A DNA stretch of 5,594 bases from a virus. This document shows, piece after piece, positions 1,300 through 5,594 of this stretch (within the stretch, counting starts at the first letter, position 1; each line of letters begins with the position of its first letter). A model generated the notes under the pieces. The model was not told the origin of the DNA. It searched no databases and saw nothing but the letters and a program-made list of their open reading frames with translations. The stretch spans positions 1 through 5,594 of IMG/VR virus record IMGVR_UViG_3300045988_021592, one strand, 5' to 3'. Position numbers and translations under genes: made by a program.

Positions 1300-1420
1300 T
1301 TCTAGGCTTCGCCGATTGAGAAACACATAGTAGCGCATTCTGCAGAGCGAGTTAGGGATTGAAGGCGAGTATTGCGAAGCAATATGTCTGAGCCGGAAAG
1401 CCCGACCCCTTTAGGGGGAA
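1300..1420. other. GC-richer structured island within the non-coding region. Candidate ssDNA origin or structured element of unknown function.
   Basis: The stretch is visibly richer in G/C than the flanking AT-rich sequence. It contains gGCTTCGCc (1305..1313, which reads GGCGAAGCC on the minus strand), the perfect palindrome tctgcaga (1339..1346), the hairpin tattGCGAAGCaata (1370..1384) and cccc-ttta-gggg (1406..1417). gattga is repeated at 1314..1319 and 1357..1362. Only very short ORFs (24 aa or less) are present. Confidence 0.5.
1370..1384 (+). other. Extended d(GCGAAGC) mini-hairpin with a 6-bp stem and a GAA loop.
   Basis: tattgc-gaa-gcaata. Pairs are 1370-1384, 1371-1383, 1372-1382, 1373-1381, 1374-1380 and 1375-1379. 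The loop is 1376..1378. The core GCGAAGC is the heptamer described as forming an extraordinarily stable DNA mini-hairpin. Confidence 0.6.
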
Positions 1421-1481
1421 CTCCATTATTATAATCTTTATATTCTTCTATATAAACAGAAATATATATGATAATAATATC

Positions 1482-3822: not shown

Positions 3823-4143
3823 TCATTCCCCATTCTGTTGTGGTTCTCCATTCTGTTGTGGTTCTCCATTCTGTTGTGGTTCTTCAGGCTTTTTCATTCC
3901 TTTACTCTTGGCTATTTTACTTGCGTTAGCTAAATCCATAGCCGATTGTGCTATTTCCCATTTGTCTGTCCTGATGTCATATTGAGGTAATACTCCGTCC
4001 TTTTTCTCTGTATAAATTATCGGTGCTCCGTCCGTGATTGGCTCGTTGTTTTCAATTAATTTTGATACTTTGATTTCGATTGATTCGCCCTCGAATGATT
4101 CTACAGACCCCATGAAATTTGGTATATATCTTGTTCTTTTCAT
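3823..4143 (-). CDS. Small 106-aa protein between VP1 and VP2, a possible assembly or scaffold-position protein. Function is uncertain. It has a C-terminal (EPQQNG)x3 repeat.
   Basis: ATG at 4141..4143 lies 10 nt after the VP1 stop. The core ...NNEPITDGAPIIYTEKKDGVLPQYDIRTDKWEIAQSAMDLANASKIAKSK resembles a small protein I recall from gut microviruses, but I cannot verify this. It does not resemble the gokushovirus VP3 scaffold motif as I recall it. The tail is basic and then becomes repetitive and acidic. Confidence 0.75.
   Translation of the reverse strand: MKRTRYIPNFMGSVESFEGESIEIKVSKLIENNEPITDGAPIIYTEKKDGVLPQYDIRTDKWEIAQSAMDLANASKIAKSKGMKKPEEPQQNGEPQQNGEPQQNGE
3826..3879 (-). repeat. In-frame 18-nt tandem repeat in three copies (one mismatch), encoding (EPQQNG)x3 at the extreme C-terminus of the 106-aa protein.
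   Basis: Plus-strand copies are ttccccattctgttgtgg (3826..3843), ttctccattctgttgtgg (3844..3861) and ttctccattctgttgtgg (3862..3879), followed by ttc. Confidence 0.9.
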
Positions 4144-4153
4144 ATTCTATTGA

Positions 4154-5594
4154 TTATAAGTTAGGTATTTGTTTTGCCGACATTACTCTTCTGGCTTCGA
4201 TTCCGAATCCGATTTGTACCCAGAAATTTTGACTTTCTGCTGATGTTTCCGCGAAAATATAATTATACTTACTCGGATCTATATAACTGGTATTGTCTAT
4301 TTCTGTACTTGTAAAATCTCCGTCTTTTGGCTCAAATATTCTGTTCAGTACCATGAATGCTTCATTACCGTTCTCAGCGAATGTTCCGTAAGTTTTGTTG
4401 AAGTTGGTCATGTAGTCTACCCATGCCACCGTCTTGCCGTACGCAACGTTATCTGTTACCCACCCTGCTGCTTTACAGGTTAATAAGTCCTGATATCCTA
4501 TACCGTCTAACGCTGGTTTGTGCAGGTCATTTAGCGTTGTAAAGTATATGTCAAAATCATTTCCTTGGCAATAATCTACGCGAGGTGTAATACTGGCTAT
4601 TCCCATTATGTAACAAGGCTCTGTTACTTTTATATGAAGTTTTCCTCCCTTTTTCGATGTATTGATACCTCTTCCTGCTAATGTTCCTAATGGCTCGTCG
4701 ACTGTTGATGAATTACTTACAACTTCTTGGAATTCTATTTCACTTGACAATCCACCCTCGTACATGGGTGTTTCTGTATGCATATTCCATTCAGATGTGT
4801 ACACTGTTTCGACCCAATCTTGGTAAGTACCTCCGCTCACCGCAATTCTATTTAACATATCATACACTTTCTTTGACAAGTTTAGCTGGTCTATTGTAAA
4901 TTTATCTCCTGCTGTGCTGATTGCTGTTATTGCGCTGATTCCGTTCTCTCCGCTTACCCATTCTGTCTTAATCCAATTGTTGAAAATATCACTTTGGTAT
5001 GTTTTAATTAATAATCCGCATCCTGCTTCTTTCAGATTCCATTTAGTGTTGGTTTCTCCTAGTACGTTACTGAAGTATGAATTTGTTGTTTTGCCTATTT
5101 CAATTTGATTTTTGCCCGCTGCAAGTATTTTTTCTCGTAGTTCGTCTAATTCTGTTAATTTCGCATTAGCTATTGGGCCTTTTCGTGTGTCTGTTGCGAA
5201 TCCTCCTAGTTTTCCGTATACTATTGTACCGTCTGATTTTCTAGTGTATTTTATGTCTTTCCCCGACTGTGTTATGGTAAAATGAGCTTTTAAATAGCTT
5301 GGTTCATAATATTTAGTTTTACCGTTTTTTATATATTGTACTATTGTGTAGTCTACTATGTCTATATTAGCATCTTTTATTAGGAAATATCCTGATGTTA
5401 TTGCTGGTTCTCCTGTTATAGCCGAATATACTATGTTGGTATCGTCTACTTTGTAAGCTCTATCAAATTTGCCTATCCAGTAGTACTGCTCTTCTTGTTT
5501 GTTCGCATAGTAATTCTTGAATATATCTAAGTATGCTAACCATGGAACCGCCTGTCCTCTTACCCTGTTTTTATTTGTCTTCCAGTCCCCTATT
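4154..5594 (-). CDS. VP1: Major capsid protein VP1, C-terminal part. 5540..5594 is the duplicated overlap. The whole protein is 627 aa and ends with TAA at 4154..4156.
   Basis: The track ORF 4154..4879 starts at an in-frame TTG only because no start codon lies upstream in that frame. I translated 4880..5594 in the same frame and found no stop: ...WLAYLDIFKNYYANKQEEQYYWIGKFDRAYKV...GKLGGFATDTRKGPIANAKLTELDELREKILAAGKNQIEIGK...IKTEWVSGENGISAITAISTAGDKFTIDQLN-LSKKVYDMLNR... Codon 5591..5593 equals 52..54, so the frame joins the 1..498 segment. The C-terminus ...FWVQIGFGIEARRVMSAKQIPNL is typical of VP1 proteins. Confidence 0.93.
   Translation of the reverse strand, partial: IGDWKTNKNRVRGQAVPWLAYLDIFKNYYANKQEEQYYWIGKFDRAYKVDDTNIVYSAITGEPAITSGYFLIKDANIDIVDYTIVQYIKNGKTKYYEPSYLKAHFTITQSGKDIKYTRKSDGTIVYGKLGGFATDTRKGPIANAKLTELDELREKILAAGKNQIEIGKTTNSYFSNVLGETNTKWNLKEAGCGLLIKTYQSDIFNNWIKTEWVSGENGISAITAISTAGDKFTIDQLNLSKKVYDMLNRIAVSGGTYQDWVETVYTSEWNMHTETPMYEGGLSSEIEFQEVVSNSSTVDEPLGTLAGRGINTSKKGGKLHIKVTEPCYIMGIASITPRVDYCQGNDFDIYFTTLNDLHKPALDGIGYQDLLTCKAAGWVTDNVAYGKTVAWVDYMTNFNKTYGTFAENGNEAFMVLNRIFEPKDGDFTSTEIDNTSYIDPSKYNYIFAETSAESQNFWVQIGFGIEARRVMSAKQIPNL
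5540..5594. repeat. Terminal overlap, copy 2. Duplicate of 1..55. The unique genome is 1..5539.
   Basis: Base-for-base identity with 1..55. A 55-nt overlap is what a de Bruijn assembler leaves on a circular contig at k=55. Confidence 0.95.

Follow-up and report, generated by a model that had tools for sequence, protein, structure and literature searches.

The conserved and widespread unit of the window (the whole stretch of 5,594 nt that was analysed) is a 75-nt core at 1349-1423 on the plus strand, and not the entire GC-richer island in which this core lies. We consider it probable (roughly 0.7) that the core is a host-recognised signal which, in single-stranded DNA, initiates the synthesis of a primer or of RNA. 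A preliminary description of the island had proposed a folded single-stranded signal for host priming. This idea gained support from a folded structure, covariation, DNA-type hairpin caps and strand polarity, and also from cassette exchange, the absence of the element from host chromosomes and plasmid copies on what is probably the transferred strand; the heptamer, the palindrome and the pairing of heptamers on which the description had built did not stand. To our knowledge, no mechanism for the conversion of single strands to duplex is known in microviruses beyond phiX174 and G4, and no such start signal has been described for Bacteroidota. The element offers a testable candidate for a conversion signal, with more than 90 natural variants.

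Genomic setting of the GC-rich island

The window represents a circular microvirus genome of about 5539 nt, with positions 1-55 repeated at 5540-5594. All of its genes are carried by the minus strand:

2699-1716, minus strand: Rep/VP4 (Pfam REP_ORF2-G2P)
Minus strand: VP2, VP1 (which wraps the window ends) and several small ORFs

The sole long non-coding stretch (1288-1715), read on the minus strand, lies after the VP4 terminator and before the small-ORF operon. As described previously, it contains an island of higher GC content (0.49 at 1301-1400 compared with 0.26 at 1201-1300, 0.26 at 1451-1550 and 0.10 at 1551-1650), flanked by sequence of about 10-30% GC. The heptamer GCGAAGC was present, as reported, at 1374-1380 on the plus strand and at 1306-1312 on the minus strand, with no further copy in the window; 0.28 copies were expected by chance, and two or more occurred in 6 of 200 shuffles. 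The plus-strand copy indeed caps a hairpin with a 6-bp stem (TATTGC-GAA-GCAATA, 1370-1384), the minus-strand copy is the complement of GGCTTCGCC at 1305-1313, and the CCCC-TTTA-GGGG hairpin was found at 1406-1417. The statement that phiX174 carries this heptamer was correct as well: it is located there at 2358-2364, between the major coat gene (ending at 2284) and the major spike gene (starting at 2395). The tctgcaga palindrome exists at 1339-1346 but is not conserved, relatives having TCTGCATA or TCCGCATG.

The core is a three-helix structure maintained by compensatory changes

Copies of the core were sought with BLAST against phage records, with pattern scans of IMG/VR, metagenomes and representative genomes, and with a covariance model, and more than 90 distinct copies were recovered. 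The core has three helices nested in one another, two purine-rich internal loops that are invariant, and two capped hairpins that vary:

1349-1423, plus strand: core element, a putative three-helix structured single-stranded DNA signal (95 aligned instances)
1349-1353, plus strand: 5' arm of P1 (GAGTT), pairing with AACTC at 1419-1423 and closing the element
1355-1360, plus strand: 5' arm of P3 (GGGATT), pairing with AAGCCC at 1398-1403 around a conserved A·G mismatch
1361-1363 and 1395-1397, plus strand: internal loop GAA opposite GGA, flanking P2 (consensus GNA/GGA)
1364-1366, plus strand: 5' arm of P2 (GGC), pairing with GCC at 1392-1394
1367-1369 and 1385-1391, plus strand: internal loop GAG opposite TGTCTGA, flanking P2 (consensus GAG/TGTYTGA)
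1370-1384, plus strand: hp1 (TATTGC-GAA-GCAATA), which is the plus-strand GCGAAGC mini-hairpin
1406-1417, plus strand: hp2 (CCCC-TTTA-GGGG), a further hairpin that is optional and precedes the 3' arm of P1

The covariance model R1 scored the window copy at 86 bits over 1345-1437. In the consensus, P1 (GCGTY/RACGC) is followed by an A and then by P3 (GGGATW/WAGCCC). P1 also occurs as GGCTT/AAGCC and GCGAC/GTCGC, its innermost pair being C-G in 55, T-A in 33 and G-C in 3 sequences, and the window version GAGTT/AACTC is a double compensatory variant of GCGTT/AACGC in the closest relative, L133. The GGG/CCC part of P3 is invariant, whereas its last pair is T-A in 53, A-T in 32 and C-G in 1 sequence; the middle pair of P2 is G-C in 88, C-G in 2 and T-A in 1. 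The sequences of the internal loops are nearly invariant across copies. Variation is largest in hp1, for which 35 distinct sequences were counted among 77 parsed elements; its stems contain tandem G·A/A·G pairs and just 6 G·T pairs. A GNA triloop forms the cap in 51 of the 77, with C-G as the closing pair in 45 of these, and the remaining caps are mostly TTTA or CTTG. The stem of hp2 covaries as well (CCCGTAGGG, CGGCTTTAGCCG, CCGGAACGG, CCCTTCAGGG), one subtype having CYCGG instead.

Covariation in aligned relatives, a check suggested with the preliminary description, was clearly seen. The 17 modelled pairs were 96.5% paired over the 95 sequences compared with 88.4% in shuffles, and compensatory changes were found at 8 pairs, in 128 cells; the observed values were reached by 0 of 500 shuffles. 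Slid registers, used as a control, were 31-49% paired, and a MAFFT alignment made independently of the structure gave the same picture of covariation. Folding as single-stranded DNA, another suggested check, gave a divided answer. The minimum-energy DNA fold of 1348-1430 yielded the same structure as the covariation model, and the core beat its shuffles on the plus strand (-13.1 kcal/mol, z = -2.58, 3 of 200 shuffles; minus strand z = -1.46), but the folding energy of the whole 137-nt island was not significant on either strand (z = -0.65 for plus, +0.18 for minus). The thermodynamic signal for the core is modest; conservation and covariation, and not folding energy, set this feature beyond chance.

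The heptamer itself is not the conserved unit, as the stem of hp1 varies with compensation and its caps are GAA, GTA, GGA, GCA, TTTA or CTTG. The minus-strand copy is accounted for by a second hairpin, of which it is the complement, in an accessory module next to the core:

1303-1348, plus strand: accessory upstream module, with the GGC-TTC-GCC hairpin at 1305-1313, then GATTG, then CACATAGTAGCGCATTCTGCAGAG

This module is common to about 15 relatives of the window's clade and missing in L133 and most other carriers. Its hairpin covaries, relatives having GCCGCGCGGC or GGCGAGCGCC. Since the two hairpins vary independently, the proposed long-range pairing of the two heptamers over 7 bp is not kept in relatives and lacks support. 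The window also has a TAGCG motif at 1332-1336 in the accessory module, which may be a chance occurrence.

The element follows the T-rich strand

The functional strand is the window plus strand, which is antisense to all genes, a point absent from the preliminary description: the loops and caps are purine-rich on this strand and turn pyrimidine-rich on the other. In all of the 98 contigs that contained both the element and VP1, the element was located on the strand which is T-rich at four-fold degenerate sites. These contigs fall into two groups. In 39 of them the element is on the coding strand and the four-fold AT skew of this strand is -0.3 or lower (T>A); in the other 59, including the window, the element is antisense and the coding strand has A>T with a skew of at least +0.3. 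In both groups the element-bearing strand had nearly the same composition (about T 0.55, C 0.15-0.2, A 0.16, G 0.13), a pattern also seen at the four-fold sites of the packaged strand of phiX174 (T 0.52, C 0.20, G 0.16, A 0.11).

The antisense genomes all belong to one clade, the window's clade of 59 contigs, in which VP1 matches are nearly full-length and reach at least 45% identity, so that the flip in composition may have been a single evolutionary event. Host codon usage does not account for the A-rich coding strands of this clade, because the genes of Bacteroides conjugative elements have T>A at four-fold sites. Four-fold skew is an imperfect marker of the packaged strand, since the Bdellovibrio phage phiMH2K (L179), unlike phiX174, Chp2 and SpV4, is rich in A and C at the four-fold sites of its coding strand (A 0.42, C 0.25, G 0.10, T 0.23), though not a full mirror image. 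Among seven close relatives, polarised substitutions on the window plus strand were C-to-T at 11 of 18 sites and G-to-A at 4 of 17, a direction that fits the expectation with counts too small to carry weight.

Hairpin caps and pairing rules point to DNA

A GNA triloop on a C-G closing pair is a DNA-type cap, whereas RNA prefers GNRA or UNCG. The C-GNA-G mini-hairpin is very stable as DNA (Tm of about 76 °C compared with 39 °C for its RNA counterpart), resists nucleases and is poorly bound by SSB, and it has been located in the complementary-strand origins of G4, ST-1 and alpha3, in ssiA and in the N4 single-strand promoters (PMC13037366). In the modelled helices of the 95 sequences, G·T pairs accounted for 2 of 1583 cells. 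No Rfam 15 family overlapped 1300-1430 at E values up to 10, and searches for tRNA and tmRNA returned nothing that overlaps the island.

These observations bear on the possibility that the element strand is transcribed into a structured RNA, whether a regulator in the 5' UTR, an operator bound by a protein or a small RNA. Covariation alone cannot tell RNA from DNA, and the element of the 39 same-strand genomes is placed in sense, 20-40 nt upstream of a start codon. However, it is antisense to all neighbouring genes in the window, in the 59 contigs of the clade and in every plasmid copy, and no conserved ORF follows it on its own strand. The C-G-closed GNA caps, the near absence of G·U and the empty Rfam search likewise speak for DNA, and the perfect link with the T-rich strand would have to be a coincidence. 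A structured RNA was therefore judged improbable, and a signal acting in single-stranded DNA remains the preferred reading.

The element is an exchangeable cassette of unrelated microviruses

BLAST with the island matched microviruses that are otherwise unrelated to the window. Carriers span at least three clades with VP1 about 22% identical, and include phages whose Rep proteins are about 25% identical or undetectably related; by eye, one subtype of the element is about 90% alike between clades with VP1 at about 22% identity. The position differs as well, the element being located after VP4 or between VP2 and VP4 in the window's clade and after VP1 in other clades. Close relatives of the window showed that the segment can be replaced as a unit:

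1248-1424: exchangeable cassette that holds the island and is swapped in close relatives

In MT135366, a genome 76% identical to the window, both flanks are kept and an unrelated GC-rich segment of about 225 nt occupies the cassette site, and MG945660 (87%) has at least the first 111 nt of this alternative cassette. Model R1 found no copy of the element in MT135366 or MG945660, which ruled out that the cassette of MT135366 is a diverged copy. L133, whose Rep protein is 96% identical to that of the window, has the core and lacks the accessory module. These exchanged placements together with the distant carriers indicate horizontal exchange and a signal that is not specific to one Rep or capsid. 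Because phages with unrelated Rep share the element and close relatives with similar Rep carry another cassette, it would be recognised by the host rather than by the phage.

For the same reasons a phage-specific site, at which Rep would nick the DNA to start viral-strand synthesis or which would serve in packaging, is very unlikely. Such a site would be expected to track the packaged strand just as well, and the element is intergenic, one-stranded, rich in hairpins and close to Rep in many genomes. It is nevertheless shared by phages that have 22-28% identity or no detectable relationship in their Rep and capsid proteins, it is present on plasmids that have neither protein, and close relatives with similar Rep swapped it out while they kept the adjoining AT-rich repeat region. 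CTTGATA, a phiX174/pC194-like sequence that directly follows the element in one sub-group, was considered separately as a Rep nick site and rejected, as it is the opposite-strand coding sequence of the VP2 C-terminus.

The alternative cassette (about 1448-1672 in MT135366, L002; 1-111 in MG945660, L001) is GC-rich, contains several hairpins and has no further match among phage records; it may represent a second type of single-strand signal. In a sub-group of contigs (L013, L078, L128, L131 and their kin) the gap between VP2 and VP4 holds the element, which precedes the VP4 start on the other strand by about 90-120 nt, and RNA begun at the element would there be Rep mRNA. Two copies of the element per contig were seen in L139 (8618 nt), L141 and L186 (8200 nt) and L236; as these contigs are longer than one genome, they may be concatemers or assemblies of mixed strains.

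Host chromosomes were covered by a pattern scan of 185,579 species-representative genomes, which gave 12 matches, of which 11 were chance. The single true copy belongs to a 3.5-kb microvirus-like contig in a Chitinophaga assembly. With no host-chromosome homologue in this set, an origin as captured host DNA or as an attachment site, considered in the preliminary description, was dismissed. The Chitinophaga silvisoli contig (contig43, 3476 nt; L175) has the element, a microvirus-like layout and a T-rich coding strand, and is part of the assembly of a cultured soil Bacteroidota isolate, which makes it a possible lead to a host-phage pair.

Copies in conjugative plasmids of Bacteroides

The element was also found, at 82-84 bits, in plasmids of Bacteroides uniformis and in some 25 contigs from gut metagenomes with TraM and TraN. 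The large contigs, which carry one subtype of the element, belong to conjugative elements of Bacteroidales and encode TraM, TraN and an M23 peptidase. The same subtype occurs in two plasmids of cultured B. uniformis. Only two plasmid lineages have the element, and in PLSDB it was present in only 2 of 72,556 records. Every plasmid copy is on the strand opposite the genes. It is located about 220 nt ahead of a gene for a 560-aa ParB-like protein, which is followed by DpnD/PcfM, DUF2958 and an orphan N6 methylase, and a divergent plasmid copy heads an operon with ArdC. A second copy per plasmid, as known for Frpo, was not detected at E values up to 10.

In pBuniCL06T06-1, the genes behind the element are transcribed toward the operon of BtgA, DUF5712 and the coupling protein, and the element strand runs 5' to 3' away from this BtgA mobilisation operon. 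Since the mobilisation operon usually enters last, we infer, from gene layout only, that the transferred strand of this plasmid is the element strand.

Presence on conjugative plasmids, on the probable transferred strand, might also suggest a transfer origin, or a relaxase or recombinase site borrowed by microviruses for mobilisation or integration, the more so as some Bacteroidota microviruses are reported to occur as proviruses (PMC3091885). This possibility is even less likely than a phage-specific site: on pBuniCL06T06-1 the element is about 9-10 kb away from the genes for BtgA, DUF5712 and the coupling protein, which have an upstream intergenic region of their own, 0 integrated copies were present in the 185,579 representative genomes and the element has no flanking repeats. 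The least credible option is a captured fragment or selfish mobile insert without function for the phage, because, despite its cassette behaviour and absence from close relatives, compensatory changes keep the structure, even between GAGTT/AACTC of the window and GCGTT/AACGC of L133, and the orientation is never random.

In many plasmid-type contigs (L301 at 12593-14600, L007, L243 and others), the element and the start of the ParB-like gene are separated by a leader of about 200 nt that is conserved. The gene behind this leader is not constant (the ParB-like gene, one for a 224-aa protein, or others), which hints at modular exchange on a second level.

Comparison with known single-strand signals

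A host-recognised priming signal can be compared with several systems. Frpo/ssi single-strand promoters of F-like and ColIb plasmids were reportedly characterised by Masai and Arai in 1997. They supply primer RNA and also early transcripts from the leading regions of plasmids (Samuel et al., 2024, PMC11541004). Like them, the element is a folded signal on the DNA strand that, by inference here, enters the cell, and its plasmid copies are in the same context, upstream of establishment and anti-restriction genes templated by the incoming strand. Judged by the T-rich strand in 98 of 98 contigs and by the plasmid layout, the entering strand would template the downstream genes in the present case too. 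The element differs in being shorter (75-nt core) and unlike in sequence, in its Bacteroidota hosts and in having phages among its carriers. Moreover, its hairpin does not rebuild the -35 and -10 hexamers of sigma-70 in duplex form; at best a -7 box is present, as TATGTTTG, partly unpaired, and no -35/-33 box fits because hp1 ends about 8 nt upstream of this box. No Frpo-like signal of Bacteroidota was found in the titles and abstracts of the literature.

The complementary-strand origins of G4, ST-1 and alpha3 (primase), phiX174 (PriA site) and M13/fd (RNA polymerase) are likewise intergenic clusters of hairpins, located on the packaged strand, at which host enzymes initiate the complementary strand. 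G4-type origins and phiX174 contain GCGAAAGC or GCGAAGC mini-hairpins, and the element shares this type of feature, a hairpin cluster with a mini-hairpin cap (GNA in 51 of 77, hp2, accessory hairpin). The CTG start triplet of G4-type origins is not conserved in the element, as the loop reads TGTTTGA in 57 and TGTCTGA in 18 of 77. Fold and sequence of these origins are unrelated to those of the element, which, in contrast, spans distant phage families and plasmids and is antisense to the genes here.

The single-strand origins ssoA, ssoT, ssoU and ssoW of rolling-circle plasmids in Gram-positive hosts, characterised by RSB and CS-6 (TAGCGT) motifs, depend on orientation, act in single-stranded DNA only, are recognised by the host and are swapped as cassettes between replicons which keep their Rep and double-strand origin. 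The element resembles them in orientation dependence and cassette exchange, as seen in the strand rule (98 of 98), the swaps in MT135366 and MG945660 and the varied intergenic sites. Neither RSB nor CS-6 was found in the core, and TAGCG occurs in the accessory module only. The promoters of the N4 virion RNA polymerase are also short DNA hairpins, with GGA or GAA triloops closed by C-G, that are read in single-stranded form; N4, however, injects its own polymerase, for which the 5.5-kb microvirus has no gene, and the fold of the element is more complex.

No description of the core element was found in the literature. It adds a new structural class to a kind of signal already known, and is unusual for its sharing between phages and plasmids and for the strand prediction that it allows.

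Proposed function and the packaged strand

According to the proposed mechanism, the core would fold into a long irregular hairpin (P3-P2-hp1) with an optional hp2 and closing P1, and the stable GNA or TTTA caps probably hold this fold on DNA that is otherwise coated by SSB. A host enzyme would read the purine-rich loops (GNA/GGA and GAG/TGTYTGA) and begin RNA on the incoming strand. This RNA would run toward the 5' side of the element, leftward in the window to the promoter at 1244-1212 and the ORF at 1191-934, and prime synthesis of the complementary DNA strand; where the genes are opposite, as in the window and the plasmids, it could double as the first mRNA. The element may thus be viewed as a horizontally exchanged module of mobile elements, microviruses and conjugative plasmids, that enter Bacteroidota in single-stranded form. 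A single host-recognised module would then link phage infection and conjugation, and the idea of single-strand promoters in plasmid leading regions would reach a dominant gut phylum.

RNA polymerase appears the most likely enzyme, an assignment that we make tentatively, and primase is possible. RNA polymerase is favoured by an unpaired loop with a Bacteroidetes -7 box, for which the promoter consensus is TAnnTTTG:

1383-1390, plus strand: TATGTCTG, 5/6 matches to the -7 box TAnnTTTG, at the junction of the hp1 stem and the unpaired 7-nt loop

A perfect -7-like TATGTTTG was found at the junction of hp1 and the loop in 47 of the 77 distinct elements, and this junction is suggestive of a pre-opened promoter. 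The model is weakened by the missing -33/-35 box and by the 39% of copies which deviate from TAnnTTTG.

As the element strand is antisense to every gene of the window, this clade may package its non-coding strand. We put forward, at slightly below even odds, the wider proposal that the clade consists of negative-sense Microviridae, which package the strand antisense to all genes, that a plasmid-like promoter reads this strand as it comes in, and that the module is shared with Bacteroides plasmids. If so, transcription would take place directly from the incoming strand, before or during complementary-strand synthesis. A negative sense in a large and abundant gut clade would overturn a defining property of the family, and no account of negative-sense microviruses was found in the literature. 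The strand rule would serve as a predictor of the packaged strand from sequence alone, and the prediction bears on strand-aware methods for virome libraries and on models of mutation bias.

Neighbouring features

Several further features were noted in the window. A good Bacteroidetes-type promoter is located on the minus strand (TTTG at 1244-1241, a spacing of 21 nt, and TATTTTTG at 1219-1212). After about 20 nt it is followed by an A-rich leader and the ATG (1191-1189) of an 85-aa ORF at 1191-934; the version in the ORF list, 934-1287 with GTG as its start, probably overstates the length. The left boundary of the cassette is formed by this promoter segment, which is conserved in MT135366. The 85-aa ORF had a homologue in only one of six close relatives, which share all other genes. 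A dif-like site was considered near 1250-1260, where AAATGTTAAAT resembles a XerD arm by eye, and was rejected because the remainder does not fit.

In the region of 10-30% GC, a 20-nt direct repeat, TGTTCATAAC(C/T)(G/C)TGTTAATA, occurs at 1492-1511 and 1535-1554, with a third, inverted copy at 1656-1678. These repeats are conserved in MT135366 and L133 despite the swap of the island and are a candidate for a Rep-binding site or the viral-strand origin. Directly after the VP4 stop codon (1716), the hairpin GCGGTTATTAACCGC at 1697-1730 is bordered by a run of A and, on its opposite side, by a run of T, and looks like a bidirectional terminator. Finally, three tandem copies of an 18-nt unit, CCATTCTGTTGTGGTTCT, occupy about 3829-3885 and encode, on the minus strand, the QNGE-containing repeated C-terminus of a 106-aa ORF at 3823-4143.
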